A stretch of 64,000 nt of DNA from an uncultured Draconibacterium sp. (GTDB taxonomy: Bacteria > Bacteroidota > Bacteroidia > Bacteroidales > FEN-979): the NCBI GenBank assembly GCA_964355945.1, contig CAYHGE010000002.1, positions 67,144 to 131,143 of the forward strand, written 5' to 3'. Both the position numbers and the translations under genes were made by a program. Positions 4,365-62,028 of the stretch are shown here, piece after piece; the first letter of the stretch is position 1, and each line of letters opens with the position of its first letter. Below the pieces are notes generated by a model that was given only the letters and a program-made list of their open reading frames with translations, did not search any database and was not told the DNA's origin.

Positions 4365-4622
4365 ATGGAAACAAGAAACCTAAGAAAAGAAAAAACCGGA
4401 ATCGTTGTCAGCAACAAGATGGAGAAGTCCGTCGTCGTTGAGGTAGAGCGTAAGGTAAAGCATCCTAAATACGGAAAGTTCGTTAAGAAATCATCCAGAT
4501 TCATGGCACACGATGACAAGAATGAGTGCAGTGAGGGTGATAAAGTGCGGATTTCTGAAACCAGGCCGCTGAGTAAAAATAAGTGTTGGAGACTTGTCGA
4601 AATCATTGAAAAGGTTAAATAA
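4365..4622 (+). CDS. rpsQ: 30S ribosomal protein S17 (uS17)
   Basis: 85-aa ORF containing [29 protein letters not shown]. Confidence 0.95.
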
Positions 4623-4624
4623 CT

Positions 4625-4993
4625 ATGATACAACAAGAGTCAAGATTATCAGTAGCAGATAATAGCGGAGCCAAGGAAGTCCTTTGTATAAAGGTACTGG
4701 GCGGAACTCGCAAGCGGTATGCCCGGGTGGGCGACCGGATCATTGTAACGGTAAAACATGCGCTGCCTTCAGGGAATATCAAGAAGGGCACCGTGTCAAA
4801 GGCTGTGGTGGTAAGAACCAAAAAAGAGACACGTCGTGCTGATGGTTCCTATATCCGGTTTGATGACAACGCTGTTGTTTTGCTCAATAATGCTGGTGAA
4901 ATGATTGGTACCCGCATTTTTGGACCAGTAGCCAGGGAGTTACGTGAAAAACAATTCATGAAAATCGTTTCTTTAGCACCTGAAGTGCTGTAA
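4625..4993 (+). CDS. rplN: 50S ribosomal protein L14 (uL14)
   Basis: 122-aa ORF starting [17 protein letters not shown]. Confidence 0.97.
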
Positions 4994-21093: not shown

Positions 21094-21104
21094 CTTAATA
21101 ATGT

Positions 21105-21153
21105 CAAAATGCAAAATGCAAAATGCAAAATGCGACAGGCAAAATGCGAAACT
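21105..21153 (+). repeat. Heptamer tandem array: (CAAAATG)x4, CGACAGG, CAAAATG, CGAAACT
   Basis: Read directly from the sequence with an exact 7-bp period. It lies between the divergent korA and ferredoxin genes. Confidence 0.9.
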
Positions 21154-24621: not shown

Positions 24622-25365
24622 TTACCTTTCCCTGTGCAGGAATGGTTTAGGACTAGCGTGAATTTTTTTTTCTGCCCGCAGAATATGCCTTTTCCCCGGG
24701 GGACCAGGCAGTTTTTCTGTGCAAAAACCGGCAGATTTCAAGGCCCTGACGATGGTTCCTTTCACAGAATAGGTAACCAGGACACCTTCCTGCTGCAACG
24801 CATTGTGTAATCTGGCAAAGATATCCACATTCCATAGTTCCGGTTGCACATCAGGGCTGAACGCATCAAAATAGACCAGGTTAAATTCACCCGCAACAGG
24901 AATGTAGTCCTCCATTTTTCCAAATATCTTGTTCAGCGTGAACCAGGGGGAGATTGCCATTGATTCATTCCAGGCGGAGAGATGAAGGTTTTCGAAAAGT
25001 TCCGTATGGGATGCAGGCTCAATCTGACGTGGATAATTCAATGCCCGCCAGAAATCTTCTGATACCGGAAATGGTTCGATAGAAGTATAATTTACCTTGA
25101 TTCTGTGTTTATCCGCAGCAATAGCGGTCAGAAAGGCATTCAGACCGGTGCCGAAGCCGATCTCCAGGATGTCAATTGAGTTGATCTCTGCACCCGGATC
25201 GGAGTTTAATTTCTCTACAGCATACAGAAAACCTGTTTCAATAAAAACATGCAGGGATTCCTTTAGTGCGCCAAAAGTTGAATGATAATGCTGGTTCAGG
25301 CTTTTGTGAAATAAGGTATCTGAACCATCAGCTGTTTTAATAATCAGCAAATCAGCACTTACCAA
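24622..25365 (-). CDS. mnmD: tRNA 5-methylaminomethyl-2-thiouridine methyltransferase (stand-alone MnmC methyltransferase domain)
   Basis: 247-aa ORF with the SAM motif ILEIGFGTGLN and the family motif YFDAFSP..QPELW. Confidence 0.7.
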   Translation of the reverse strand: MVSADLLIIKTADGSDTLFHKSLNQHYHSTFGALKESLHVFIETGFLYAVEKLNSDPGAEINSIDILEIGFGTGLNAFLTAIAADKHRIKVNYTSIEPFPVSEDFWRALNYPRQIEPASHTELFENLHLSAWNESMAISPWFTLNKIFGKMEDYIPVAGEFNLVYFDAFSPDVQPELWNVDIFARLHNALQQEGVLVTYSVKGTIVRALKSAGFCTEKLPGPPGKRHILRAEKKIHASPKPFLHRER

Positions 25366-27761
25366 ATCCTTGGATACTTATTCGGATTATATTCATGCAT
25401 CATCTCATAGATCGTTTCAAATACATCCTCGGCATTTGGATTTGAGAAATAGTCACCATCGTTGGTATAGGCCGGGCGGTGGTCATTTGATGTAAGGGTG
25501 CGTGGTTCAGCATCGAGATAGCGATAACCACCCTGATCTTCCATTACTTTCTGCATCATGAATGCTGTTGCGCCACCGCTTCCATCCTCATCAAAGAAGA
25601 GGATTTTGTTGGTTTTTTTCAGAGACTTGAGGATGTCGTGGTTGATGTCGAACGGGAGCAGGGTCTGCACATCGATGAGCTCGACAGAAATGCCGAAGTC
25701 TTTAATCTGGGGCAATGCTTCCTCGGCAATTTTAACACAGGAGCCGTAAGTTACGATTGTAATGTCTGATCCTTCCTGCAATACTTCAGGAACACCCAGG
25801 GGTATCCGGTAGTTGCCGATGTTGGCCGGCATCTGTTCTTTCAGGCGGTAGCCGTTTAACGGTTCAATAACAAGTCCTGCATCGTCGGAAGCCATCATGG
25901 TATTGTAGAATCCTGCAGCCTGCGTCATATTCCGCGGCACCATTACGAATATCCCGCGAATGGAGTTGATAACCATGCTGAGTGGTGAACCAGAATGCCA
26001 GATTCCGACCAGGCGGTGGCCACGCGTACTGATAATGAGCGGAGCTTTCTGACCTCCTACCGTGCGGTATAGTGTGGTGGCAAGGTCATCGCTCATCACC
26101 TGCAAACCATAGAGCAGGTAATCAAAATACTGAATTTCAGCAATCGGGCGCAATCCCCGTAGGGCCATGCCCAGTCCCTGTCCGATGATGGTAGCTTCGC
26201 GGATACCGGTGTCGGAAATCCGGGTTTCGCCATACTTGGCCTGCATCCCTTCCAGTGTTTGGTTTACACCGCCTATTTTTCCGACGTCTTCACCGAAAAT
26301 CAGGGCCAGAGGGTTGGTTTTGAAGAGGATGTCGTAGTTGGCATTCAGTACTTCGCGTCCGGTCACCACCGGGGAGTTTTCGTTAAATACCGGCGGAATA
26401 CCTGCAACCTTGAGTGCGCTGTGTTCAGACTCGCTGTAAAGGTGCGAACTGTAGCGGGCTACATTGAGTTTCCGCTGTTCTGCCATCCAAACATCAAGAT
26501 CGGCTTTCATTGGTTTTTTCATGCTGCAGGAGGTACAAACATCACGCATGATCTTCTTTGCCGAAGAGATGATGTCTTTCCTGATCGGATCTGCAATGGC
26601 TTCAAGATCGGCTACGATCTTATCGATACGGGCTTGCTTTTTGCAGGGACAGTGAGTGGTTTTTACGACATCGATGAGGTGCTTGCGTTCCGCTTTAAAG
26701 GGTGACAGAAATGCTTTGTATCCACGGTCGCGGGCGGCTTTTGCTATTTTAACAGCATCTGATTCAATCATATCAAGTTCTTCAACCGTGGCAATTTTTT
26801 CATCGAGGATCCAGGTGCGCATTCTTGGGAGACAATCATGATCTCTCTCCCAGGCCAGACGTTCAGCTGACTTATAACGTTCGTGCGATCCGGATGTTGA
26901 ATGACCCTGGGGCTGTGTCAGCTCCCTGACATGGAAAACAACCGGCACCATCTCTTTCCGGCATACAGCAATTCCTTCCTCGTACATTTCGTATAATGCG
27001 GCATAGTCCCATCCCATGCATGAGTAGAGGCGAATCCCCGGTCCCTTTTCATCGGCTACAAAACCTTTGAGTAACTCGGAGATATCCTCCTTGGTGGTCT
27101 GGTATTTCTTTGGAACGGAAATGCCATAGCCATCATCCCAGATTGAGAGTGCGATCGGAACCTGCAGGACGCCGGCAGCATTGATAGTCTCAAAGAAATG
27201 TCCTTCCGAAGTGGAAGCGTCGCCAATCATTCCAAACGCTATTTCATTTCCTTTAACGGTGAATTTTTTTGCGGCCTCCCACATGTCAGGGCTGTTGCGA
27301 AATACCTTGGAAGCAAGCGCAAGGCCGAGTAAACGTGGCATCTGCCCGGCAGTAGGAGATATGTCTCCGGAAGAGTTCTTTTGTTTGGTGAGGTCTTTCC
27401 ATTCGCCATTTGCATCCAGGCTGCGGGTTGCAAAATGAGAATTCATCAGCCTGCCACCGTTATCGGGGTTGCGTTCTAAGTCAGTATCGCCGTAAAGTTG
27501 AGCAAAAAAGATATCCAGGTTGGATAACCCGGCAGCCATCATGAAGGTCTGGTCGCGGTAATATCCTGAGCGCCAGTCACCGTTCTGGAAGAATTTTGCC
27601 TTGATAATCTGGGGGATTTCCTTGCCATCACCAAAAAGTCCGAAATTGGCTCTGCCACCTAATACTTCCCGCCTTCCCAATAAACTTACCTGGCGGCTTT
27701 CGTTTGCCAGTTTATAATCTTTTAAAACCTCTTCTTTGCTGAATTTACGTTTCTTTGACAT
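25359..27761 (-). CDS. Fused E1 alpha/beta component of a TPP-dependent 2-oxoacid dehydrogenase
   Basis: 800-aa ORF. The N-terminal half is E1-alpha-like (GDASTSEG) and the C-terminal half is a transketolase-like E1-beta. No E2 or E3 gene lies nearby. Confidence 0.8.
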   Translation of the reverse strand: MSKKRKFSKEEVLKDYKLANESRQVSLLGRREVLGGRANFGLFGDGKEIPQIIKAKFFQNGDWRSGYYRDQTFMMAAGLSNLDIFFAQLYGDTDLERNPDNGGRLMNSHFATRSLDANGEWKDLTKQKNSSGDISPTAGQMPRLLGLALASKVFRNSPDMWEAAKKFTVKGNEIAFGMIGDASTSEGHFFETINAAGVLQVPIALSIWDDGYGISVPKKYQTTKEDISELLKGFVADEKGPGIRLYSCMGWDYAALYEMYEEGIAVCRKEMVPVVFHVRELTQPQGHSTSGSHERYKSAERLAWERDHDCLPRMRTWILDEKIATVEELDMIESDAVKIAKAARDRGYKAFLSPFKAERKHLIDVVKTTHCPCKKQARIDKIVADLEAIADPIRKDIISSAKKIMRDVCTSCSMKKPMKADLDVWMAEQRKLNVARYSSHLYSESEHSALKVAGIPPVFNENSPVVTGREVLNANYDILFKTNPLALIFGEDVGKIGGVNQTLEGMQAKYGETRISDTGIREATIIGQGLGMALRGLRPIAEIQYFDYLLYGLQVMSDDLATTLYRTVGGQKAPLIISTRGHRLVGIWHSGSPLSMVINSIRGIFVMVPRNMTQAAGFYNTMMASDDAGLVIEPLNGYRLKEQMPANIGNYRIPLGVPEVLQEGSDITIVTYGSCVKIAEEALPQIKDFGISVELIDVQTLLPFDINHDILKSLKKTNKILFFDEDGSGGATAFMMQKVMEDQGGYRYLDAEPRTLTSNDHRPAYTNDGDYFSNPNAEDVFETIYEMMHEYNPNKYPRIW

Positions 27762-27796
27762 TGTTTGTTTGTTAGTTGCTTATTTTTTGTTAGCGG

Positions 27797-27852
27797 GTGA
27801 ACAGGTGAACAGGTAAACAGGTGAACAGGTAAACAGGTAAACACGTGAGCAT
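27797..27852 (+). repeat. Octamer tandem array: GTGAACAG x2, GTAAACAG, GTGAACAG, GTAAACAG, GTAAACAC, GTGAGCAT
   Basis: Exact 8-bp period read from the sequence. It lies between the rubrerythrin stop and the start of the E1 fusion gene. Confidence 0.9.
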
Positions 27853-27887
27853 ATAAACTGATCCGCATGTCCGCTTGTACGCTTGTT

Positions 27888-31806: not shown

Positions 31807-31827
31807 GTGACGGGTGACGGGTTGGGT
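31807..31827 (+). repeat. Short heptamer array: GTGACGG, GTGACGG, GTTGGGT
   Basis: 7-bp period immediately after the bcp stop. It overlaps the stop of the convergent 149-aa ORF. Confidence 0.65.
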
Positions 31828-32276
31828 TACAGACCGAATTTTTTCTCGTTCAGCAGGTCTTTTTCAATGCCTTCCGGGGTGAGTAAATCTTTCTTTTCTT
31901 TTGGATAAAACGCATCGGGCAGCAGTTGAATGTGCATGCTTAGCAGCAAATGATCCATGATGATCAGCAGCAGTGTACCGATGAAGGGGAGCGGGATCAG
32001 CATGACCGGAACAATGACTCCTGAGCTTCTGAGAATATCAATAACCTGCCGTTTGAATTTTTTCTTCTCTTCCCTGGAAAGCTTCTCTTTTTTGATGTAT
32101 TTAGACAGGATTGTGAAGGTTTCCTTTGTTTCTATTGCCTCTGTTTTGATTCCGGTTGAATACCTGCCGGCTTCACCTAAAAACATCCTGGCATAGCTGC
32201 CAATGAGTTCCCTAACCCTGGGCAAGGTAAACAGTCCAAGGAAATAAGCAATGATCTTTTTACGGAGGGATTTCAT
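31827..32276 (-). CDS. Hypothetical membrane protein (possibly LETM1-like)
   Basis: 149-aa ORF with one strongly hydrophobic segment (VIVPVMLIPLPFIGTLLLIIM) and Lys/Glu-rich flanks. The family assignment is a weak impression only. Confidence 0.5.
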   Translation of the reverse strand: MKSLRKKIIAYFLGLFTLPRVRELIGSYARMFLGEAGRYSTGIKTEAIETKETFTILSKYIKKEKLSREEKKKFKRQVIDILRSSGVIVPVMLIPLPFIGTLLLIIMDHLLLSMHIQLLPDAFYPKEKKDLLTPEGIEKDLLNEKKFGL

Positions 32277-32310: not shown

Positions 32311-32358
32311 CAGGCGGACGGGCAGACAGGCGGACAGGTGGAGAGGCGGACGGAAAGT
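32311..32358 (+). repeat. Octamer tandem array: CAGGCGGA, CGGGCAGA, CAGGCGGA, CAGGTGGA, GAGGCGGA, CGGAAAGT
   Basis: Exact 8-bp period, filling the gap between two minus-strand genes. Its sequence is related to the array inside the activase CDS at 39927. Confidence 0.9.
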
Positions 32359-33116: not shown

Positions 33117-33671
33117 CTAATTCAGGACATTCACCGGTTTCAAAAGTTCTTTTCCCACTTCAATTGCTTTTTCATTCTCAGGGATAAGGACATGATGACG
33201 GGCTGGAAGTGATTTTTCCAGTCCTTTATGAATAAATTCAGGAGCAACGAGTGGTTTTAATTTGAGGAAACCTCCCAGAACAATCATATTGAAGGTTTTG
33301 GCGAGACCACGTTTACCGGCTTCGTCGGCAGCCTCGATGGAGTAGATGTTAATGTCTTTCCTCTCAGGCAGGCGTGTGAGTCCGTTGGGGTCGTATATAA
33401 GCAATCCTCCCGGTTTCACGGTCTTTTCAAATTTATCCATCGACTGCTGGTTGAGGATAATGGCGGTATCATAAGAGTTCAGAATGGGGGAACTGATCCG
33501 TTCATCACTGATGATCACGGTAACATTTGCAGTTCCGCCGCGCATTTCGGGGCCATACGAGGGCATCCAGCTCACTTCTTTGTTCTGCATCACACCTGAA
33601 TAGGCGAGAATCTTTCCCATGGAGAGGACACCTTGTCCTCCGAATCCGGCTATAATAATCTCTTCTGTCAT
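33117..33671 (-). CDS. 2-oxoacid:ferredoxin oxidoreductase, gamma subunit
   Basis: 184-aa ORF starting IIIAGFGGQGVLSMGKILA. It is the last gene of a delta-alpha-beta-gamma set. Confidence 0.88.
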   Translation of the reverse strand: MTEEIIIAGFGGQGVLSMGKILAYSGVMQNKEVSWMPSYGPEMRGGTANVTVIISDERISSPILNSYDTAIILNQQSMDKFEKTVKPGGLLIYDPNGLTRLPERKDINIYSIEAADEAGKRGLAKTFNMIVLGGFLKLKPLVAPEFIHKGLEKSLPARHHVLIPENEKAIEVGKELLKPVNVLN

Positions 33672-33678
33672 GTCGAAT

Positions 33679-33720
33679 GAATATCGAATATTGAATAACG
33701 AATATTGACTGTTGAACTGG
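33679..33720 (+). repeat. Heptamer tandem array: GAATATC, GAATATT, GAATAAC, GAATATT, GACTGTT, GAACTGG
   Basis: Exact 7-bp period occupying the intercistronic gap between the beta and gamma subunit genes. Confidence 0.85.
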
Positions 33721-33728
33721 AATAATTC

Positions 33729-34535
33729 CTACTCAACCGTTACTTTTTTTTCCACCAGTTTCCCATCTATTTTGATGTCACCGAGTTGATAGAAGGGGAA
33801 CATGTTGTCCTCCATCCACTTGTTGGACTGTACCGGGGTCATTTTCCAGCCGGAATTGCAATTGGAAACAATTTCGATGAAACACAATCCTTTGTTCTCC
33901 TTCTGGAGTTCAAAGGCCTTTCGGATGGCTTTTTTTGTTTTTCGCACATGGTTGGGTGTGTGAACTGCCTGCCGTGTCACATAATAAACTCCGGGAAGGT
34001 GTGAGATCAGTTCAGTGATCTTGAGTGGATGACCCATGGTGGGCACATCGCGACCATAAGGCGATGTTGAGGAGCGCATTCCAGGCAGGGTTGTCGGGGC
34101 CATCTGACCTCCGGTCATCCCATAAATTCCGTTGTTGATGAAGATGATTGTGATATTTTCACCACGGTTACAGGCATGTATCGTCTCAGCAGTACCAATT
34201 GCAGCGAGGTCGCCGTCACCCTGGTATGTGAATACAAAATGGTTAGGCCACATACGTTTGATGGCAGTTGCAAGTGCGGGAGCACGCCCATGGGCCGCAC
34301 CGATCATGTCGATGTCGAGAAAATCATAAGCCAGTACAGAGCAGCCAACAGGTGAAACCCCAATGGTTTTATCCTGGATGTCCATCTCTTCTATCACTTC
34401 CATCAGCATGCGATGGGCAGTGCCATGGCCACATCCCGGACAATAGCTAAGCGGACGATCAACCAGCAGGTCTGTCCTTTTATAGACGATATTCTCCGGT
34501 TTGTGAATTTCAGTCTTTGCGAATAGTTCTTCCAT
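33729..34535 (-). CDS. 2-oxoacid:ferredoxin oxidoreductase, beta (TPP-binding) subunit
   Basis: 268-aa ORF with CPGCGHG and the GDGD..AIG TPP motif. Confidence 0.9.
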   Translation of the reverse strand: MEELFAKTEIHKPENIVYKRTDLLVDRPLSYCPGCGHGTAHRMLMEVIEEMDIQDKTIGVSPVGCSVLAYDFLDIDMIGAAHGRAPALATAIKRMWPNHFVFTYQGDGDLAAIGTAETIHACNRGENITIIFINNGIYGMTGGQMAPTTLPGMRSSTSPYGRDVPTMGHPLKITELISHLPGVYYVTRQAVHTPNHVRKTKKAIRKAFELQKENKGLCFIEIVSNCNSGWKMTPVQSNKWMEDNMFPFYQLGDIKIDGKLVEKKVTVE

Positions 34536-34537
34536 AA

Positions 34538-35620
34538 TTAACCTCCGATAATTTTTTGTTCCAGGGCGCTGACAACTTCATCCGGTGAGGGGATGATTCC
34601 ACCGAAGCGGCCGAAATGTTCTATTTTTACTTTACAGCCAACCGAGAGTTTTACATCTTCGATCATTTGTCCTGCATTCATCTCAACAACCAGGATTCCT
34701 TTCACACGGTTACCAACATTGGATACTTCAATGGCCGGAAAAGGAAAAAGCGTAATCGGGCGGAACAGTCCGACTTTAATGCCTTTGGCACGTGCAAGGT
34801 CAAGGGCTTTCTGACAGATTCTGGCCGAGAGTCCAAATGCAACGAGGAGATAGTCGGCATCTTCGCATTGAATCTCTTCGTACAAAACCTCATTTTTTTC
34901 CATGAGTTTATATTTTGCCTGGAGCTTCAGGTTCACCCGTTCCTGTCCTGCCGGATCGAGGTCAAGTGAGGTAATGATGTTGTGGTTACGGGCTTTCGGC
35001 CTTCCGGTCGATGCCCATGGACACTGTGCAATCAACTCTTCGTCTGTGCGCCGCGGGATATGATCAAAAAGCACAACTTTCTCCATCATCTGGCCAATGG
35101 CTCCGTCGGAGAGAATCATAACCGGTGTGCGGTATTGATATGCCTTTTCAAAACCAAGTTTAACATGGTCGCACATTTCCTGCACTGAGGCCGGGGCAAG
35201 CACCAGCATTTTGTAATCGCCGTGTCCACCGCCTTTAACTGCCTGAAAGTAGTCGGCCTGAGAAGGCTGGATGGTTCCGAGACCCGGGCCGCCACGTACG
35301 ATGTTGACAATAACGGCAGGCAGTTCAGCACCCGCCATGTAGCTGATCCCTTCCTGCATGAGGCTCACGCCCGGGCTTGAGGAGGATGTCATGACCATTT
35401 TTCCTGTTCCTGCCCCGCCATAAAGCATGTTGATGGCGGCAACTTCGCTCTCAGCCTGGAGAACCACCATGCCAGTCCGTTCGAAAGGCTTTTCAGCCAT
35501 CAGGTATTCCATCACCTCAGACTGGGGTGTAATCGGGTATCCGAAATAGCCATCGCAGCCTGCCCGAATGGCGGCCTCGGCAACAGCTTCATTCCCCTTC
35601 ATTAATCTAAGTTCACCCAT
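34538..35620 (-). CDS. 2-oxoacid:ferredoxin oxidoreductase, alpha subunit
   Basis: 360-aa ORF starting MKGNEAVAEAAIRAGC..YFGYPITPQSE. Confidence 0.9.
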   Translation of the reverse strand: MGELRLMKGNEAVAEAAIRAGCDGYFGYPITPQSEVMEYLMAEKPFERTGMVVLQAESEVAAINMLYGGAGTGKMVMTSSSSPGVSLMQEGISYMAGAELPAVIVNIVRGGPGLGTIQPSQADYFQAVKGGGHGDYKMLVLAPASVQEMCDHVKLGFEKAYQYRTPVMILSDGAIGQMMEKVVLFDHIPRRTDEELIAQCPWASTGRPKARNHNIITSLDLDPAGQERVNLKLQAKYKLMEKNEVLYEEIQCEDADYLLVAFGLSARICQKALDLARAKGIKVGLFRPITLFPFPAIEVSNVGNRVKGILVVEMNAGQMIEDVKLSVGCKVKIEHFGRFGGIIPSPDEVVSALEQKIIGG

Positions 35621-35641
35621 AATGTATGTTTTTTTCGATTT

Positions 35642-35872
35642 TTATTCAGTAGCGACTTTTGCCCGGTACACGGTGATTACTCCGTCGGGGCAGACCAGGG
35701 CACAGTTTGTACAACCTGTGCACTCATCGTTGACTTTCATTGCGAAGTGATATCCTTTGCTGTTCACTTCCTTCGACATTGCGATCACAGTGAAAGGGCA
35801 TGCAGCAAGGCACACTTCACAGCCTTTGCAGCGATCGGTGTTGATCACAATATCACCTTTAATTTTTGCCAT
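35642..35872 (-). CDS. 2-oxoacid:ferredoxin oxidoreductase, delta subunit (2x[4Fe-4S])
   Basis: 76-aa ORF with two Cys clusters, CKGCEVCLAACP and CTGCTNCALVCP. Confidence 0.88.
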   Translation of the reverse strand: MAKIKGDIVINTDRCKGCEVCLAACPFTVIAMSKEVNSKGYHFAMKVNDECTGCTNCALVCPDGVITVYRAKVATE

Positions 35873-36019
35873 ATAAGAGGGGTTGAGTTGTTAACGGATT
35901 CACAGGGGCGAAAGTACAAAAATTTGTTTGAACCACCAGTCATTCAGCTATTGGAAAATAAGGCAGATTGTCTAATTTAGAACTGGTTTAATCTTATGCC
36001 TTAGTCATTCTCTATAGCT

Positions 36020-37336
36020 TTAACCTAAGTGGTTCTCCCGGAATTTATTCAGTCTTTCTTCCAGCACCGGAAATTGTTCGCGTTTTACAAGCGAAACGCA
36101 AGCCCTGATGCCTTCTGTACGTTCACTTCCGGTGATGCTGAGGGTGATGGCGCTGATCCCATAATAGATCAATTCCTGGAGTAGCTCCTCACCGGTAAAG
36201 CCCTTGTATGCAACGGTGAAAAAGAACCCATCTGCAATGGGTTCATCTTCATCCCTGTCATAAACGATGGTGAACCCATTGTCGATAAACATCTTCTTCA
36301 TGATTTTCGCCTTGGCGCCATATTCCTTTACAACTTCCACGAAGTCGAGTTCGCCGTCATTTACTGCTTTGAGCATGGCAGCCAGTGCATATTGGGTTGA
36401 ATGGGTGGTGCCGGCGCTTAATGCATAAACCGTTCCGTAAATGAGGGCGGTGCCAACGATATCGGAGGTATAGTGACGGAGCAGATCCGGTGCTTTGGTG
36501 TTGAACAGTTTATTGGAAAGAACCATCAGCCCGATACGCTGACCGGCATAACTGAAAGCCTTTGAACTTGAGATCAGAAGAAGGAAATTATCGGTGTATT
36601 TTGCAACAGTGGGTTGGTAAGGCGGTTCACCCGGCTTTGAATAATCTTTACGAAAATCCATTGCAAAATAGGCAAGGTCCTCGATGATGATTACATCATA
36701 TTTTGTGGCAAGTTCACCGATAATCCTGAGTTCCTTGTCTGTTAAACATATCCAGGAAGGGTTGTTCGGATTAGAATAGAGCACCGAATGAATATTTCCT
36801 TTCGAAAAATAGCTTTCAAGTTTGTCGCGGAGTTTGTCTCCACGATAATTATACACATCAAACGTTTCGAATTTCTGACCCAGCACCCTGTGTTGCTGAT
36901 GGTGAACCGGGAAACCCGGATCGATGAAGAGGGTCGTATCTTTATCGCGGTGGATCTTTGAAAAAGTCAGGAATGCAGCAAAACCGCCCTGCATGCTGCC
37001 GACCGTGGGAACACAATTAGCCGCATCAACATCAATGTCAAGAAAAAGTTTGACAAACCGGGCTGCCTCCTTTTTAAGTATGGGAACTCCTTCAATGTCA
37101 GGATATATTGCTGCTACCCCTTTCTGAAGCGCTTCAATCTCCGCCTGCAGGCCGATGGCGGTTGCAGGAAGACCGGGCACCCCCATTTCCATCCGGATGA
37201 ACTTTTCCCCGGTCTCTACCTCGATCCCATTTATTAGTTTCTTGATCTCCCGGATAGTAGCTTTGCCTATATTCCGGATTTTACTTTGAAGGATATGTCG
37301 CTGAACAACATCGTAACTGATGGGAGTCTCTTTCAT
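36020..37336 (-). CDS. PLP-dependent aminotransferase, class I/II fold
   Basis: 438-aa ORF with a Schiff-base lysine context SSSKAFSYAGQRIG and NPNNP. Substrate cannot be told from the sequence alone. Confidence 0.8.
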   Translation of the reverse strand: MKETPISYDVVQRHILQSKIRNIGKATIREIKKLINGIEVETGEKFIRMEMGVPGLPATAIGLQAEIEALQKGVAAIYPDIEGVPILKKEAARFVKLFLDIDVDAANCVPTVGSMQGGFAAFLTFSKIHRDKDTTLFIDPGFPVHHQQHRVLGQKFETFDVYNYRGDKLRDKLESYFSKGNIHSVLYSNPNNPSWICLTDKELRIIGELATKYDVIIIEDLAYFAMDFRKDYSKPGEPPYQPTVAKYTDNFLLLISSSKAFSYAGQRIGLMVLSNKLFNTKAPDLLRHYTSDIVGTALIYGTVYALSAGTTHSTQYALAAMLKAVNDGELDFVEVVKEYGAKAKIMKKMFIDNGFTIVYDRDEDEPIADGFFFTVAYKGFTGEELLQELIYYGISAITLSITGSERTEGIRACVSLVKREQFPVLEERLNKFRENHLG

Positions 37337-37471
37337 GAGTTGATGGGGTATGAGGTGTTAGTATTCAGAATAGCAGGCAACAAAATTGAAGAAAATTTTT
37401 CAACAATCCAATGATATGGAAAAGGTTATTGAAAATTAATTTGTATCCACTTTTTACAGTAATCCAAACAG

Positions 37472-39679
37472 CTATCTGATCAGGACCACATTTCCGGTCA
37501 GGGTGGAATTTTCAGGTGGTGAAAGCGAGGACTGATATACAACGACAAAAACATAACTCCCTTCAGGGCATAACTCACCCTTCAGGGTGCCATCCCACCC
37601 GGGTTCGGGCTGTGTGGAAGTGAAAACCAGTTGGCCGGAACGATTGTAAATGTTCATGCTGTATTGCCTGATATTATTTGTAAAAGGTCGAAAGTTGTCA
37701 TTCAATCCATCTCCATTTGGGGTAAAAGCGTTGGGCAACCGGATCACGATTTCGCACTCCGTTCCGGTCTTAATGAAAATTGAAGTGCTGTCGGAGTTGT
37801 CACATCCATGGGAATCAGTATAACGATAAGAAATGAGGTGGTTTCCTGTTCCACTGATCAGCGGGTCTATACTTGCAGCGGCAGTACCATTGATCCTGTA
37901 TTCTCCTCCCGCCGGGTTTCCACCGGTGAGTACCAATGCGGGTTCATTGTAACAGATTGTGTCAAACGCTGCAAGGGATACCTGGGGTGGAGGATAGAAA
38001 AAGATTTGAAGTGCAGATTCCTGGCCGTCACCACAAGTGTTGGTTCCATAAACCGCCAGCGTTCCCGAGGTGGCGGATGTATCGAATGTGACCAGGGAAC
38101 TTGTGTCATTGGAAATAACAGTGGCACCCGTGCCTGAATAGGACCAGGTGTATGAAGAGGCACCGGGGTCGTGCCTGATGGTGTAAGTCATGGCAACTCC
38201 TCCTTCACAGAAAACATTGTTGCCGCTTATCTTCCCGGGCTGCCCGGGAATTCTTTTAACCTGGAAATTGAGGGACTGGGTAATGGACCTTGAAACATAC
38301 CACCAAGAATTGATTGTATTCGTATCACCGGTTTCGATATCCCACAAATGGCATCCGGTCAGGTCGGTACAGCCATTGAGGTTGGCAGAGATGACCCCGG
38401 GCAACAACCTGTCGTCCCAGTATATCTCTGGTTTTGGTCCCGGGGGCCTCACCACCTCCACGATATAACCATTGTCGTTGTATTCAATGTCATAGATCGG
38501 AAGATGGGTGATGCCGCGGATGAACCTGACTGTTGATCTGACTGTTACACCATTGGTCACCGGGTTCCCCAACCCGTCGTTCCCATTCCAGTGGATGATG
38601 TTATACCCATTTCCCCCTGGATTGGCCAGGATATTGGCTGTGAGTTTTACATCCCGAGGGTCCGCCCCGGGACCTGGAACAACTTCGACCAAAAGCTCAA
38701 TCAGTCCGTCGTGTGATACCCGCACCCCCAGGTCCACTGAACCGGTTGCACAATCGTTGGTTACCATGATTGGAAGGTTGATGCCCGGTTTTGCCCTTCC
38801 GGTAGGGAAAATTGTACTGTCGGGGTCTGTCAAAAAAACCTTGTATTGAGGATATGTGTGGAACCCGGTGTGTGATTGCCTGTCTGTGGCAATATTTCCG
38901 GTGGTTGAGCATCCTGTCTCATTGCTGGAAATAGAGAACGTCCCTCCGACAAACCCATTGCAGTTAACGCTTGTTACAATGCTGTCGTCAGACAGGATAT
39001 ATACAGTTCCAAAGAAGCGGCTGTCAGTCGGCGGAGGTTCCACCACTCCGCAATTAAATTGCCAGGCCTTTGACCATAAACGACCCGTTTTCGGCTTGCC
39101 GGAGGCATCCAGCACCGTTATATCAAAGAATTCAAACCTGACATACCTGCTCATGGAATAGGTGCCAGCCAGGTCGGGAGGGTAATAGAATTCGAGTGAA
39201 TAATTCCCGCGGATAGGAGAAGGATACTCAATGGGATTATACCCGTTGTCTGCCGGAAACGGACCGATTGTGTCCTGGTCATATGTGCTGATAAATCCCG
39301 GGCCTGATTTGGGAAGCTGAAATGGACCAAGCACAATATTGCCTGCAGGATCTCTTAACTGGAACTGAACAATTACGGTAGAATCAACCTGCAGGATTTT
39401 ACCCAGGCCAAAACAAATTTTTTCAGCCGGATCGGCGATGTAAATATTAATCCTGAATTCAGGACTGGCATTGAAGAACCCGAAATCGTTGCGTGACTTG
39501 TCAATACAGAGTTTCCCCTGTGCAGTATCAAAAGGTGCAACCTGTTTTGTTCCTTCTGAAAACCCGGCCAGGGAATGGAGGAGGAGCAAAAGAATGACAG
39601 AAAGCCAGATGTTAAAAAGGGGTTTCACTCCCTGTATAGCACTTGATTCCCAGTGATGAAAATTGTTGTTTGATTTCAT
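37472..39679 (-). CDS. Large secreted protein with a gliding-motility-type (T9SS type-B, CHU_C) C-terminal domain
   Basis: The C-terminus reads LPNAFTPNGDGLNDNF...YNRSGQLVF...WDG. The track start at 39844 is buried in the activase gene. Plausible starts are the ATG at 39679 or the GTG at 39628, which immediately precedes the signal peptide KPLFNIWLSVILLLLLHSLAG. Confidence 0.7.
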   Translation of the reverse strand: MKSNNNFHHWESSAIQGVKPLFNIWLSVILLLLLHSLAGFSEGTKQVAPFDTAQGKLCIDKSRNDFGFFNASPEFRINIYIADPAEKICFGLGKILQVDSTVIVQFQLRDPAGNIVLGPFQLPKSGPGFISTYDQDTIGPFPADNGYNPIEYPSPIRGNYSLEFYYPPDLAGTYSMSRYVRFEFFDITVLDASGKPKTGRLWSKAWQFNCGVVEPPPTDSRFFGTVYILSDDSIVTSVNCNGFVGGTFSISSNETGCSTTGNIATDRQSHTGFHTYPQYKVFLTDPDSTIFPTGRAKPGINLPIMVTNDCATGSVDLGVRVSHDGLIELLVEVVPGPGADPRDVKLTANILANPGGNGYNIIHWNGNDGLGNPVTNGVTVRSTVRFIRGITHLPIYDIEYNDNGYIVEVVRPPGPKPEIYWDDRLLPGVISANLNGCTDLTGCHLWDIETGDTNTINSWWYVSRSITQSLNFQVKRIPGQPGKISGNNVFCEGGVAMTYTIRHDPGASSYTWSYSGTGATVISNDTSSLVTFDTSATSGTLAVYGTNTCGDGQESALQIFFYPPPQVSLAAFDTICYNEPALVLTGGNPAGGEYRINGTAAASIDPLISGTGNHLISYRYTDSHGCDNSDSTSIFIKTGTECEIVIRLPNAFTPNGDGLNDNFRPFTNNIRQYSMNIYNRSGQLVFTSTQPEPGWDGTLKGELCPEGSYVFVVVYQSSLSPPENSTLTGNVVLIR

Positions 39680-40580
39680 GAAGATCTTCGGGTGACGGGA
39701 TGATAAAATCTTCTGTATAATATGTTTTACCGATGAGGTTGTATTTTTCTCTTCCAAGGTGATGAAGTGGAAGGATGTTGATCTCATTGCGCCCGGTTGA
39801 TTGAATAAAACGGGCGGTGGAAGAGATGTTGGCGGTATCATCATTAAATCCGGGGACTACAGGTAGTCTGAAAATCAGGCGTCCTGCAAATTCTCTGGCA
39901 ATTCGGCGGGCATTTTCAAGGATTAGGGGAACAGACGGACAAGCGGACATGTGGACGGGTGGACGGGCGGACAAAGTGGGTGAGTCTGTCATAGACTTCA
40001 AATCGAAAAATATCCAGTCGATATAGGGTAAGGATTTTTTTAAATTTTCCCAGGGAACATTGCCACAGGTTTCAACTGCTGTATGAATGTAGGCATCATG
40101 GCATGTTTTCAGGATATCAGATGCAAACTCCGGTTGCATAAATGGTTCTCCACCGGTAAGTGTAATTCCACCTCCGCTACCCCAGTATTGGCGGTCGCGT
40201 TTGATCCTGGCATACAGGTCTTCTGCAGAAATTTCATATCCTCCGATGTTAAGCGCCCCGGAACAACATGCTTTGGCACAATCGTGAGTCAGACAAAGTG
40301 CGCAAAACTTCCTGTCAAAGTGCAATTGATCACCTTCGATGTTGCAACTGGAGGATATTGCTCCTTTTGAACAAGCATGCATACACAAACCGTCGAATGT
40401 GCATTTTGAGAGGCGGTAAAGCGGCTCAGGAAAAAAGGAAATTCCTTCCGGGTTGGAACACCAGGAACATTCCAGTGAACAACCCTTGAAAAAAATTAAA
40501 GTACGGCAGCCGGGACCGTCATGAACAGAGAACCCCTGGATATCGAAAATAATGCCACTGCTCAGTTTTGATTGTTCCAT
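39612..40580 (-). CDS. Glycyl-radical enzyme activating enzyme (radical SAM) with an extra ferredoxin-like di-cluster insert
   Basis: The ATG at 40580 gives MEQSKLSSGIIFDIQGFSVHDGPGCRT. It has the motif CSLECSWC (CX3CX2C) plus CTFDGLCMHAC and CALCLTHDCAKACC. An octamer array is embedded in the coding sequence. Confidence 0.85.
   Translation of the reverse strand: MEQSKLSSGIIFDIQGFSVHDGPGCRTLIFFKGCSLECSWCSNPEGISFFPEPLYRLSKCTFDGLCMHACSKGAISSSCNIEGDQLHFDRKFCALCLTHDCAKACCSGALNIGGYEISAEDLYARIKRDRQYWGSGGGITLTGGEPFMQPEFASDILKTCHDAYIHTAVETCGNVPWENLKKSLPYIDWIFFDLKSMTDSPTLSARPPVHMSACPSVPLILENARRIAREFAGRLIFRLPVVPGFNDDTANISSTARFIQSTGRNEINILPLHHLGREKYNLIGKTYYTEDFIIPSPEDLHEIKQQFSSLGIKCYTGSETPF
39927..39982 (+). 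repeat. Octamer tandem array inside the activase CDS: GGGAACAG, ACGGACAA, GCGGACAT, GTGGACGG, GTGGACGG, GCGGACAA, AGTGGGTG
   Basis: GGAC recurs at 39937, 39945, 39953, 39961 and 39969, an exact 8-bp period. The array encodes DSPTLSARPPVHMSACPSVP on the minus strand. Confidence 0.85.
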
Positions 40581-40819
40581 TGAAAGTCGGCGCATTTGCT
40601 GGCGATCATGTCGGGATAGGCCAGGATGGTCCCCTGGCATTTCCCCAGGTACTCCTTTTCAGCTGTATAACTTTTACAGAACCTGCACTTGGGGATTTGT
40701 TTTCCTTTTTCACAAAGCGGTTTATCAGGACTGATTTTTTCCTTACTGAGTTTGCAAATCCCCCTGAAAACATCCACAGGCAGGTAATAGGTGCAATCTT
40801 TACAAAAGAGGTCTTCCAT
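40562..40819 (-). CDS. Small 8-Cys iron-sulfur subunit of a glycyl radical enzyme (HPAD gamma-subunit-like)
   Basis: 85-aa ORF with Cys at 6, 9, 22, 36 and 45, 48, 61, 76. It lies between the GRE and its activase and overlaps the activase start by 19 nt. Confidence 0.75.
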   Translation of the reverse strand: MEDLFCKDCTYYLPVDVFRGICKLSKEKISPDKPLCEKGKQIPKCRFCKSYTAEKEYLGKCQGTILAYPDMIASKCADFQWNNQN

Positions 40820-40841
40820 GATTCTATTATTGTTTGGTCAG

Positions 40842-43511
40842 CTAAAATTCCTCATATTCTGTTCTGGAAATCACTTCATCCTGGATCTGTTTTCCAAGTT
40901 CAACCCAGTACTGGGTAAATCCGGCAACGCGGACAAGCAAGCTCCTGTATTTATCCGGGTCGGCCTGTGCCTGCTTAAGCATCCGTGAATCGACGATGTT
41001 GAATTGCACGTGGAAGCCACCTTTACGAAGATAGGCACGGATCAGTTCCAGAAATTTCCGTGATCCTTCCCTGCCTCTGACAACGGAAGGATGGATCTTC
41101 ATGTTGAGTTGTGAATTCTGTGATTCGGCGTGGTTCCAGCACGTAGCAGAGTTAAACAGGGCATAAGGACCATTCTTGTCAGTGCCGGGATATGCTGAAA
41201 CGGATCCGTCCGAAAAAGTTGTGCCGCTTAACCGCCCGTCGGGGCCGGCCAATGTAACGGCCCCCATTGGTCCATGAGTGGATACAGATATCTGGCAGGC
41301 ATACATCGGCTGATCGTAGAGCGACCGGTAGTTATGTGCCATTTTACAGAACCACTCTTCCCATTCCTTAAGGATGTTATCAACAAATGGGTTGTCGTTA
41401 CCGAATTTAGGTGCATCTAGACTTTGCCGGTGGATTTTTTTCCAGAGATGATGGTCCTCGCCGGGAACCTGATCGATTAACGACCAGGAACCGGTTTCCT
41501 TCGCAGTTTTGTATCCGAAATTGGCCAGGATTGCCTTTCGGTATTCATCCAGGGTGTAATTATGCTCTGCAAAGATGTTTTTTTTCATCGAACCCAGTGA
41601 ATTTACCAGGTTCGTTGTACCACAGGTCTCGATATTGAAAGTTGTATTGTAGCGGCAGCCCATTTGCCCGATATCTTTTCCTTTTGTAAGGCAATCAGGC
41701 TTCAGCATTGAATTGACCAGAGAGGGGGAAATTTTCCGCCAGGCGTCATGCTGGATGTTGTTTGCCAGGGTCAGCACATGACAGGCCCGGCTGAAATAAT
41801 CCTTAAAGGCCTGCCAGATTTCGGCGTAATCATCCAGGTTATATCCATGCGGCGGAAAAATCCGTTGACCCGTTCGCATATCCATGCCATTGAAAATGAC
41901 AACTTCCAGTAATTTCGGAAGGTTCAGAAAGTGTACGCCAACGCTGGTGGCAGGAGCAGAACCTCCTGGTATCCAGTGAATTTCATTGTCAAGTTCAAGT
42001 GGCATCCAGCTGCCGGGAGATGTTTCAAGGCAGCCTCCTATTGCCCATGCGCGGGCCTCTTCGAGATGCAATCCCTCATGGCCATAGTTTCCAAGCAGAA
42101 ACTCCATTGCTACCTGGTTGTTAATCCATGCAGGGTAGCCGGTACCGGTTTTTGTACATTCGATACCTTTTAAAAGAAACTCTTCAGGAAGTTTTTCATC
42201 GTACAGGAGAGACAGTGTGGGTTGCGGGGTATCGCAGGTTATCCCGGCCTCAAGGATGAGAATTTCAAGATCATTGGCAGCAGATGTGCCATCTTTTAGC
42301 AGTCCGCCGAGACACAGGTTGTTGAATGTATTCCCGGAGAGGACTCCGCCAACCACGCCCATCGATGCAAAACAGTCTATTTCAGTGAATTTGATCCGCA
42401 TGCACTCCAGCAATTCGAGGGTTTTTTCGCGGTCGATCACGCCATTTTTCATATCACGTTGCCAGAATGGAAAGAGTACCTGACCTACACGGCCGGGGGA
42501 TAGCCCCGATATGGCATCTTCATTCAGGACTGCCACATGGAAGATCCACAGCATTTGCAATGCGTCATGAAAAGACCGGGGAGGCTTACAGGCGATCCAG
42601 GCAAGCCGTTCGGACATCTCCAGGTATTCAGTTTTTTGCCTGGCTTCAGTTTCGATCGATGCAAGAAAATCTGCTTCTGCTGCATAATTTTCAATCCAAT
42701 GTTTGATGCCTTCAAGTGTGATGATAACAGCGTTGTAGAAATAGATGCGGTCCATGTCAGGATATCCGGCCACTTCTGCAATTCTGTCATGGCAGCTTTG
42801 GATTATCCCATCGATACCAAACTGAAGCGGATAATAATAGTTCATAACCTCCCGCCCCTGCGGAAGTGTATAGCCGGAATCGAACATGCAGATTACCGAG
42901 CGCATCAGTGCTTCCTTTTCCTTGTAACCGGGAACAAGCTGCTCATATTTGTGGCCTACATCGTCAACCGATTTGTTTTTCCATTTTTTTGCCACTTCCA
43001 GCATGGCAGGCAGTTCTTCCAGTCGTAACCCGAATTTTCCGGCGATGGATATCACATTGCCAGCACTCTTTGTGACATTGCCTCCTCCTTTGCCCATGGT
43101 CGTAAAACTGTCGGCGGTGAGCTTTCCGGATTCCTGGGCCTCTTTGTAAAGGTCATCCTCGGCAGCCATGAAAAACGCTTCCGACAGCCAGGGCATGGGG
43201 TAGGAGCCGCGGAGATAGGATGCTTTGCCCATGGTTAGCAGTTCGCCGGGATAAATTACCGGGGTAAGATGTTCAAAACCAGCTTTCAATGCCTCTGCAC
43301 GCCGGACAATTGGTATTTCTCCATCCAGGGCCTCCCATCGACGGGTGTACCAATATGGAAATTCTATGGAAACCGAGGATTTGGCTTCAAAGTAAAGTTC
43401 TCTGGCTGCATGAGCCCTGGATGTTGGCTGTCGTTTGCTCCCGCAGGATGTGACCTCGCCGTCGGGCTTGTTGCCGTAATAGTTGATATGAGTCTGGGCC
43501 GTGGTGTTCAT
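40842..43511 (-). CDS. Glycyl radical enzyme, 4-hydroxyphenylacetate (arylacetate) decarboxylase-like large subunit
   Basis: 889-aa ORF with the glycyl motif LLVRVAGFTQYW near the C-terminus and the thiyl loop AIGGCLETS. Confidence 0.85.
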   Translation of the reverse strand: MNTTAQTHINYYGNKPDGEVTSCGSKRQPTSRAHAARELYFEAKSSVSIEFPYWYTRRWEALDGEIPIVRRAEALKAGFEHLTPVIYPGELLTMGKASYLRGSYPMPWLSEAFFMAAEDDLYKEAQESGKLTADSFTTMGKGGGNVTKSAGNVISIAGKFGLRLEELPAMLEVAKKWKNKSVDDVGHKYEQLVPGYKEKEALMRSVICMFDSGYTLPQGREVMNYYYPLQFGIDGIIQSCHDRIAEVAGYPDMDRIYFYNAVIITLEGIKHWIENYAAEADFLASIETEARQKTEYLEMSERLAWIACKPPRSFHDALQMLWIFHVAVLNEDAISGLSPGRVGQVLFPFWQRDMKNGVIDREKTLELLECMRIKFTEIDCFASMGVVGGVLSGNTFNNLCLGGLLKDGTSAANDLEILILEAGITCDTPQPTLSLLYDEKLPEEFLLKGIECTKTGTGYPAWINNQVAMEFLLGNYGHEGLHLEEARAWAIGGCLETSPGSWMPLELDNEIHWIPGGSAPATSVGVHFLNLPKLLEVVIFNGMDMRTGQRIFPPHGYNLDDYAEIWQAFKDYFSRACHVLTLANNIQHDAWRKISPSLVNSMLKPDCLTKGKDIGQMGCRYNTTFNIETCGTTNLVNSLGSMKKNIFAEHNYTLDEYRKAILANFGYKTAKETGSWSLIDQVPGEDHHLWKKIHRQSLDAPKFGNDNPFVDNILKEWEEWFCKMAHNYRSLYDQPMYACQISVSTHGPMGAVTLAGPDGRLSGTTFSDGSVSAYPGTDKNGPYALFNSATCWNHAESQNSQLNMKIHPSVVRGREGSRKFLELIRAYLRKGGFHVQFNIVDSRMLKQAQADPDKYRSLLVRVAGFTQYWVELGKQIQDEVISRTEYEEF

Positions 43512-43613
43512 TGAAATGTGATTTTCGAAAACAATGAATATGAGCCCAAAGTTAACGATTCATTTCCGATTCTGAACAAATGAAAAATGAATATTCATTT
43601 TTATTAAAGCTTC

Positions 43614-44327: not shown

Positions 44328-44373
44328 AAGGCAATTGCAAACAGAATCGGGTCCGGTTGTTTATAAACCGCGG

Positions 44374-44381
44374 CAAAAGTA
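44374..44381 (-). promoter_or_regulatory. Candidate -7 promoter box (TACTTTTG) for the membrane protein / GRE unit
   Basis: Matches TAnnTTTG on the minus strand, 47 nt upstream of the ATG at 44327 and downstream of the algH-family terminator. Confidence 0.35.
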
Positions 44382-44420
44382 GGGATTTTACAGAACAATA
44401 TGACGGCGGGAAATGGGGAT

Positions 44421-44455
44421 AAAACCTTCCAGGTTTTTAAAACCTGGAAGGTTTC
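44421..44455 (-). terminator. Probable intrinsic terminator after the YqgE/AlgH gene
   Basis: 14-bp perfect stem (44422-44435 pairing with 44441-44454) with a 5-nt loop, followed on the - strand by TTTTAT. Confidence 0.6.
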
Positions 44456-44469
44456 AGGCTATGGTCAGA

Positions 44470-53370: not shown

Positions 53371-53415
53371 AATAAGTGTTAAGTGATTAAGTGTTAAGTT
53401 TTAAGTGCACTAAGG
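53371..53415 (+). repeat. 7/8-bp tandem array built on TTAAGTG: AATAAGTG, TTAAGTGA, TTAAGTG, TTAAGTT, TTAAGTG, CACTAAGG
   Basis: Read directly from the sequence. It fills the gap between the purD stop and the start of the downstream membrane protein gene. Confidence 0.8.
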
Positions 53416-60974: not shown

Positions 60975-60998
60975 CAGGTGACCGGTGACAGGTGAGAG
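60964..60998 (+). repeat. Heptamer tandem array: GTGACAC, GTGACAG, GTGACCG, GTGACAG, GTGAGAG
   Basis: Exact 7-bp period. It covers the last codons and the TGA stop of the wzy-like gene. Confidence 0.9.
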
Positions 60999-62000: not shown

Positions 62001-62028
62001 TATTCGATATTCAATATTCGATATTCTA
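62001..62028 (+). repeat. Heptamer tandem array: TATTCGA, TATTCAA, TATTCGA, TATTCTA (reverse complement of the GAATATY unit at 33679)
   Basis: Exact 7-bp period between the efp stop, which it overlaps, and the lpxD start. Confidence 0.85.

Follow-up and report, generated by a model that had tools for sequence, protein, structure and literature searches.

An in-frame octamer array in a glycyl radical enzyme activase gene of an uncultured Bacteroidales lineage, and its relatives in intergenic DNA

Simple-sequence contingency loci, such as those with tetranucleotide tracts in Haemophilus influenzae or with CTCTT tracts in the opa genes of Neisseria, have tracts that are long, perfect, usually close to the 5' end, and polymorphic in lengths that put the gene out of frame. 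Dispersed tandemly repeated heptamers are represented by the short tandemly repeated repetitive (STRR) elements of cyanobacteria, and in-frame minisatellites of coding regions, known as variable-number tandem repeats (VNTRs), give rise to protein regions of variable length. The octamer array described here lies in frame on the minus (coding) strand of a gene for a glycyl radical enzyme (GRE) activase, within a 64-kb stretch of a contig of an uncultured Draconibacterium sp. that was analysed as a whole and is called the window below. Literature searches on GRE activases with inserted repeats, on octanucleotide repeats of Bacteroidetes and on phase variation by 8-bp repeats returned nothing relevant, and no description was found of the family of 7-8 bp arrays to which this one is related or of the lineage of lake Bacteroidales metagenome-assembled genomes (MAGs) that carries it. 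The features on which the argument rests are the following.

39612 to 40580, minus strand: coding sequence of the GRE activase, 322 aa (Pfam Radical_SAM and Fer4_12, TIGR02494, fold of the pyruvate formate-lyase activating enzyme, PFL-AE)
39927 to 39974, minus strand: core octamer array, (YYGTCCRC)6, recognized by its sequence, its units and its above-chance periodicity
39924 to 39995, minus strand: entire variable segment bounded by the anchors DLK and ILENA, SMTDSPTLSARPPVHMSACPSVPL, 24 aa, delimited by alignment A1, segment lengths, motif frequencies and structural models

On the plus strand, positions 39935-39974 consist of the units ACGGACAA, GCGGACAT, GTGGACGG, GTGGACGG and GCGGACAA, in which GGAC recurs at an exact spacing of 8 bp (39937, 39945, 39953, 39961 and 39969); an earlier examination of the letters by themselves, hereafter the sequence-only reading, had reported this period and these five units, and its positions and units are all exact. 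On the coding strand the six degenerate units of 39927-39974 are TTGTCCGC CCGTCCAC CCGTCCAC ATGTCCGC TTGTCCGT CTGTTCCC, which translate to LSARPPVHMSACPSVP, and a seventh degenerate unit, CACCCACT, is found at 39975-39982. As had been claimed, the frame of the activase crosses the array without a stop codon, reading FFDLKSMTDSPTLSARPPVHMSACPSVPLILENARRI; the two remaining sense frames are likewise open across the array, and each meets a stop right after it. At most two adjacent units are identical, and the array, which is degenerate, was not listed by Tandem Repeats Finder at scores of at least 30; its detection is based instead on exact-period runs, autocorrelation and shuffled sequences. Series of at least five copies of one exact 4-mer with constant spacing occur three times in the window (27800, 39937 and 60964) and not once in 100 Markov shuffles; the period-8 autocorrelation of the 72-nt segment is 0.58, a value reached by 0 of 2000 shuffles; and a 40-nt sliding scan of the 64 kb, about 90% of which is coding, identified four arrays of 7-8 bp units, the one in the activase gene being the sole one within an open reading frame (ORF). 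The periodicity of this coding DNA is above chance, and the presence of a non-chance, in-frame octamer array in the activase gene is confirmed.

The host ORF (39612-40640, minus strand) has 342 aa, with a probable start at Met21 that gives a product of 322 aa identical to a database protein (P0123). This product scores 58.4 bits against Pfam Radical_SAM (cutoff 29.5) and 283.4 bits against NCBIfam TIGR02494 (PFLE_PFLC; cutoff 174.35). The cysteines C54, C58 and C61 (CX3CX2C), the sequence G163-G164-E165 and the sequence D213-L214-K215 are invariant columns of alignment A1, which comprises 30 sequences with the window activase among them, so that these columns are kept in it by definition. The spacing from DLK to ILxNA is exactly 17 residues in 71 of the 120 best homologues. 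Seventy canonical sequences give the pattern [HQ]-M-D-x-x-x-H-x-x-x-T-[GS]-x-x-N-x-L (one canonical 17-mer is HMNPAKHFEATGSPNHL); His7 is conserved in all 70 of them, Thr11 in 68 and Asn15 in 67. In the window activase, 16 of the 24 residues of the segment are encoded by the array, and His7, Thr11 and Asn15 are all lost. A model of a canonical protein (P0035) places a short helix at residues 195-202, then a turn and the beginning of the next helix (207-219), at values of 90-93 in the predicted local distance difference test (pLDDT); the AlphaFold2 model of the window activase has coil at residues 214-236, of which 221-233 have a pLDDT below 50. The segment encoded by the array is thus predicted by these models to be a disordered coil in place of a helix-turn. 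The assertion of the sequence-only reading that the array replaces a conserved segment is borne out by the exchange of a 17-residue helix-turn for a 24-residue coil from which the conserved His, Thr and Asn are gone, and its comparison with the compact segment of E. coli PflA agrees with the sequence of PDB 3C8F. In PFL-AE the active-site cation is coordinated by the Asp of this DLK motif (PMC10267522), from which it is inferred that the segment begins at the active-site face and leads outward.

The segment is non-canonical at the same site in all of the approximately 35 closest protein clusters, which have 63-90% identity to the window protein and come from lake Bacteroidales/Bacteroidota MAGs, and in a neighbour-joining tree computed with the segment masked, the 35 non-canonical clusters and the window protein form one clade. 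Thirty-three of the 35 clusters differ from the canonical segment in length, and the other two keep 17 residues of non-canonical sequence. Within the clade, the segment has lengths of 9, 17, 20, 23-25, 27, 30, 32, 33, 38, 40, 49, 57 and 78 aa, and 23 of the 34 segments that are not of 17 residues fall on the series 17 + 8n, having 9 (one segment), 25 (nine), 33 (eleven), 49 (one) or 57 residues (one). Compared with an expectation of 1/8, the binomial probability of this excess is approximately 1e-13, for sequences that share ancestry and are not phylogenetically independent. A step of eight residues is 24 bp, which is three octamers, and the insert peptides (for example PPVRLSACPPV, RPPVHLPTCP and SALRPPVRPS) are in-frame readings of GTCCRCCY that pass through all three codon phases every 24 bp. 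The best period of the insert DNA is 8 (shuffle p of at most 0.03) in the window and in loci L001, L003 to L006, L032, L083, L084, L087 and L165. The insert of L081 is also 8-periodic (autocorrelation 0.54, p = 0), with a best period of 11 because about 17 CCGTCCGC units are mixed with 11-mers; in L002, L085 and L086, which belong to the same clade, the periodicity of the insert is lost, and the corresponding DNA of four canonical loci has no periodicity. The alignment of orthologues that the sequence-only reading had proposed as a check on lineage specificity shows that a non-canonical segment at this site is not private to this genome and is shared by one clade of related clusters. Unrelated taxa in which non-repetitive DNA encodes this peptide, named by the sequence-only reading as a refutation, were not encountered, the inserts of the relatives being mostly 8-periodic.

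Variation in copy number with the reading frame kept is seen among orthologues within a single cluster of 90% identity, that of P0029 (L083), whose alleles have 355, 347 and 326 aa. In P0029 about 12 near-perfect CAACTTAC units are translated as (LPTYQLAN)n, the comparison within the cluster is of about 12 versus five CCAACTTA units, and L165 and L166 have five perfect units each. A second small clade (P0061/L007, P0075 and P0120) has inserts at the same turn, as do two singletons, and the insert of L007 is built of a different octamer, CAATCCTT. One explanation considered for this diversity was that three unrelated octamers had arrived independently at a single site. It is disfavoured for the CAACTTAC array of P0029, for which turnover of the unit in place is the favoured origin, because P0029 is nested inside the clade of GTCCRC inserts and because the intermediates GTCCACCT, GTTCACCT and GTTTACCA are present in intergenic arrays; the group of P0061, P0075 and P0120 may represent a separate event.

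The activase ORF is intact, with the cluster cysteines, GGE, DLK and C-terminal motifs all present. Between the window and L001, which are 90% identical, the ratio of nonsynonymous (dN) to synonymous (dS) substitution rates is 0.134 outside the insert; dN is 0.35 inside the insert versus 0.041 outside, and dS is 1.09 versus 0.31, the inside value being drawn from few synonymous sites. These rates are read as purifying selection on the enzyme together with fast turnover of the DNA within the array. Five more assemblies (ENA, Logan), obtained from different samples, match the window with 99.92-99.995% identity over up to 21 kb and contain the identical array; at the consensus level none of the five has an indel relative to the window, the intergenic arrays included.

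Arrays of the same or a related unit are found between genes elsewhere in the window.

32311 to 32358, minus strand: intergenic sibling array of the same unit family, in the same orientation relative to transcription
27861 to 27882, plus strand: short copy of the array between genes, built of the same unit and oppositely oriented (ATCCGCATGTCCGCTTGTACGC)
27796 to 27858, minus strand: about 6.6 intergenic copies of the related unit CTGTTYAC, lying upstream of the gene at 25359-27761 and adjoining the array at 27861-27882

The array at 32311-32358 adjoins, on the upstream side, the TAnnTTTG box and ATG of the gene at 31827-32276. Its transcribed strand, CCGTCCGC CTCTCCAC CTGTCCGC CTGTCTGC CCGTCCGC CTGTT, and the coding array, TTGTCCGC CCGTCCAC CCGTCCAC ATGTCCGC TTGTCCGT CTGTT, end alike, and the similarity of composition to which the sequence-only reading had drawn attention extends to the unit, the orientation and the terminal CTGTT. 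The pattern GTCCRCNNGTCCRC with at most one mismatch has 11 matches in the window versus 0.47 expected, and 10 of the 11 are within three arrays. An exact 13-mer, CATGTCCGCTTGT, is common to the arrays at 27861-27882 (plus strand) and 39943-39956 (minus strand), which are inverted and about 12 kb apart. Among the relatives, three sites of L032 have such arrays, of 8.9, 11.1 and 4.6 units, the first two being near-perfect GTCCGCCT, and an intergenic array of L003 grades from GTCCACCT into GTTTACCA. By the evidence of its units, the activase array is a member of an octamer family scattered through the intergenic DNA of an uncultured Bacteroidales lineage.

The 11-unit array of L032 (2151-2239) and an array of about seven units in L003 (2140-2195) lie between a terminator hairpin and a CCCTACTTTTGC promoter box, which is conserved and belongs to the gene of a 237-aa membrane protein in L032, L003 and the window. 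In the orthologous spacer of the window (44328-44469), the hairpin and the box are kept and the array is absent; arrays are thus gained or lost at orthologous intergenic sites. At another site in L032 (3-152, minus strand), a 493-aa ORF of a Lake Pavin MAG ends in a near-perfect GTCCGCCT array read antisense, the tail finishing with RTGGQADRRTGGQADKRTCGHADGE and the stop codon, and as judged from this ORF it is a second case in which the array family is translated. A protein search with the idealised peptide (VRLSACPP)5 retrieved three tiny hypothetical ORFs only, and so gave no sign that the family is translated in other real proteins, the tail of the L032 ORF excepted.

Further intergenic arrays with units of 7-8 bp are present in the window at 33679-33708, 53373-53407, 62001-62026, 21100-21151, 43573-43591 and 60964-60995, with the units AATATTC, ACTTAAC, TCGAATA, TTTGCAT, TTTGTTCA and GTGACAG. 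Two of these six stop 7-10 nt short of the next start codon on the minus strand and therefore form its leader, and an array of L001 that is orthologous by position to the one at 33679 has 5.6 copies compared to 3.9 in the window. The contig of P0014 (L081) has mutually reverse-complementary arrays of 10-bp units at 1397-1460 and 1645-1729 (GCAGATTTTC and ATCTGCGAAA), which flank a spacer upstream of the decarboxylase gene, and an 11.6-copy array of CGAATAT at 4548-4631 between the genes of the large and small subunits.

The probable explanation of the array in the activase gene is a slippage-prone octamer microsatellite that is tolerated in a permissive loop of the enzyme and filtered by selection on the reading frame. 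The ancestor of the clade would have acquired an octamer array in the turn after beta-strand 4 (the DLK strand) of the radical S-adenosylmethionine (SAM) barrel; replication slippage would then have added and removed units as the unit sequence drifted; and with a unit of 8 bp only frame-restoring changes would survive, typically of three units (24 bp, or eight residues). The outcome would be a loop that is hypervariable in length and rich in Pro, Ser, Ala, Cys and Arg, and in the window genome and its nearest relative the array would also have overwritten the canonical helix that bears the otherwise invariant His, Thr and Asn. The peptide encoded by the array is most likely a passive, disordered surface loop, and the enzyme appears to stay functional. 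That a repeat had invaded or expanded within the coding sequence and is tolerated as a loop was the first of three explanations put forward in the sequence-only reading, and it gains support from the replaced helix-turn, the predicted coil and the intergenic octamer family.

Several points weigh against slippage into a permissive loop. Slippage was not directly seen: the six near-clonal assemblies (at least 99.92% identity) have no length difference in any array, and, as no more than two neighbouring units of the window array are identical, this array may by now have almost ceased to change. About one third of the clade, including the window with its segment of 24 aa, is off the series 17 + 8n, so other indels contribute to the lengths. 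Both structural models are of moderate quality, with mean pLDDT of 69 and 76. Finally, the loss of a residue invariant in 70 of 70 sequences is surprising if the loop is passive, and there could be compensation or an altered function.

A broader proposal, which is rather unlikely, is that an active, sequence-specific process seeds and spreads octamer arrays (GTCCGCCT and its drift variants) throughout the genomes of the lake Bacteroidales clade. The sites of arrays include positions upstream of promoters, the 3' tails of ORFs and the interior of the activase gene, and the unit is stop-free in every sense frame, so that arrays can be absorbed into proteins. If such a process exists, spreading would go beyond local slippage and might occur by templated insertion or gene conversion between arrays; the activase would illustrate the natural birth of a new protein segment from a repeat, replacing an invariant helix in a gene under purifying selection; and lineages with perfect tracts could also use the array as a frame-shifting switch.

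The genes immediately upstream of the activase on the same strand encode the large and small subunits of a GRE of the 4-hydroxyphenylacetate decarboxylase (HPAD) type, both of which pass their equivalog cutoffs.

40562 to 40819, minus strand: small (gamma) subunit of HPAD type, 85 aa (Pfam 4HPAD_g_N; NF033716, 62.4 bits, cutoff 50)
40842 to 43511, minus strand: GRE large subunit of HPAD type, 889 aa (Pfam PFL-like and Gly_radical; NF033715, 1430 bits, cutoff 1150)

By this gene context, the host of the array is the activase of an HPAD-type glycyl radical operon. The activase itself scores 297.1 bits against the HpdA equivalog model NF033717, below the cutoff of 420; it falls outside the equivalog and is therefore assigned at the subfamily level only, and automated annotation will give it only a generic name. 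Downstream of the activase are genes for a secreted PKD/CHU_C protein, an aminotransferase, and subunits of 2-oxoacid:ferredoxin oxidoreductase. The PKD/CHU_C gene, the product of which is secreted by the type IX secretion system, is wedged in behind the activase gene and overlaps its final 17 nt. The minus strand from 33117 to 43511 comprises the HPAD large and small subunits, the activase, the aminotransferase, a ferredoxin and four 2-oxoacid:ferredoxin oxidoreductase subunits. This neighbourhood looks like a full pathway leading from an aromatic amino acid to a product of the cresol type, in which the amino acid would be converted to an arylacetate and the arylacetate would then be decarboxylated.

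Among the other explanations of the array, the one that survives best, although it is unlikely, is that the Pro/Cys-rich peptide is a functional loop that, for example, docks onto the decarboxylase or its Fe-S small subunit, or binds a metal or haem through Cys-Pro. The insert persists across a clade with no more than 63-75% identity among its members, in which the rest of the protein is constrained, Cys-Pro is found in 11 of 36 segments, and the site directly follows the DLK strand, the Asp of which ligates the cation in PFL-AE. However, neither the sequence nor the length of the segment (9 to 78 aa) is conserved, any Cys at all is present in just 15 of the 36 segments, and Cys-Pro arises automatically wherever TGTCCR is in frame; the structural model predicts disorder here, and dS is raised along with dN inside the insert, which is indicative of mutational turnover and not of selection for the peptide.

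Very little probability is given to a contingency switch, in which gain or loss of one 8-bp unit would toggle the activase, and hence decarboxylation of the type that produces p-cresol, within the population. The 8-bp unit is no whole number of triplets, none of the three sense frames has a stop within the array, and both shifted frames stop just past it, so that a change of one unit would truncate the protein; moreover, relatives with near-perfect tracts have copy-number alleles inside the 90% cluster described above. The window array, however, is degenerate and not reported by Tandem Repeats Finder, is located about two thirds of the way into the ORF rather than near its 5' end, and is identical in six assemblies (consensus sequences), and the insert is out of frame in 0 of about 20 distinct insert-bearing DNA loci. 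Of the marks of a contingency locus, the non-triplet unit is present, a long tract of identical units is absent, and out-of-frame alleles are not seen among these consensus sequences and loci. A 91-aa query ending in the array, aimed at truncated close alleles, retrieved only eight short fragments of 57-70% identity, which are unrelated, and so gives a weak negative. One 102-aa fragment that starts just past the insert (P0131) was considered as a split gene and rejected, as it begins in frame at IDWIFFDLK at a contig end. The on/off switch, which was the third and avowedly speculative explanation of the sequence-only reading, is therefore unsupported here, where the array is degenerate, identical in six assemblies and in frame in every case; it is conceivable for relatives with near-perfect tracts such as the lineage of P0029.

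An element acting at the DNA or RNA level within the coding sequence, such as an array of protein-binding sites or a G-rich template-strand structure that modulates downstream transcription, is just as improbable as a switch. It is suggested by the match in unit and orientation to the array at 32311-32358, which stands just upstream of a TAnnTTTG box, and by the dispersal of the array family in relatives. No TAnnTTTG box is apparent by eye just downstream of the coding array, where no pattern search was made, Rfam at its gathering thresholds has no match in the window, and the inserts of L002, L085 and L086 are aperiodic, yet persist as peptide.

It is extremely unlikely that the activase is an incipient pseudogene, damaged by the repeat and decaying, as the second explanation of the sequence-only reading would have it: the canonical and otherwise invariant His7, Thr11 and Asn15 are lost and the score is below the HpdA equivalog cutoff (297 versus 420 bits), but the frame is undisrupted, the motifs are kept, dN/dS gives no sign of relaxed selection, the partner subunits are intact with scores above their equivalog cutoffs, and the architecture is common to 35 related clusters; the pseudogene is accordingly rejected. 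An assembly or sequencing artefact at the repeat, against which the sequence-only reading had also cautioned, has a negligible probability, for although short repeats are prone to mis-assembly and a related contig (L161) ends just short of the site, the identical array without an indel in five assemblies from different samples excludes it.

On the probable explanation, that of a tolerated microsatellite, a non-triplet repeat would be able to persist over long periods within a conserved enzyme's catalytic barrel, its length changing in steps of eight residues, and a helix with a residue invariant in 70 of 70 sequences would be dispensable or compensable in GRE activases, the turn being a permissive site for engineering. 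The locus also draws attention to a family of 7-8 bp arrays that is dispersed in uncultured freshwater Bacteroidales and is undescribed. For annotation, the activase gene is intact and is not to be labelled a pseudogene despite its score below the HpdA cutoff.

Among the closest known systems, PflA of E. coli (PDB 3C8F, 3CB8 and 8FO0) has the same radical-SAM fold as the window activase (Foldseek E 1e-16, TM-score approximately 0.8 on the target; phmmer E 1.5e-24), and the CX3CX2C, GGE and DLK motifs are common to both; PflA has a compact segment after DLK where the window activase has a coil of 24-25 residues encoded by a repeat, and the window activase has a Cys-rich ferredoxin-like insert that PflA lacks. 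HpdA, the HPAD activase of clostridia, is the best-scoring equivalog model for the window activase and likewise has HPAD-type operon partners, but the window activase belongs to a Bacteroidales lineage, has a repeat-encoded segment and scores below the equivalog cutoff. Like the contingency tracts of Haemophilus and Neisseria, the array has a non-triplet unit within an ORF, in which a change of one unit shifts the frame; unlike them, it is degenerate, inside the core of an enzyme, fixed in six assemblies and found only in frame. Like the STRR elements of cyanobacteria, it is one of many scattered tandem arrays with units of 7-8 bp, most of which are intergenic. With coding VNTRs it shares repeat-driven variation in the length of a protein segment, but the unit of 8 bp is read in three frames in turn and changes the protein in steps of 24 bp (eight residues), and the host is a conserved catalytic barrel rather than a surface protein. 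As a tandem repeat of coding DNA that gives rise to a hypervariable loop, it stands out from these systems in its non-triplet unit, in its host, which is a catalytic barrel, and in the loss of a strictly conserved helix.

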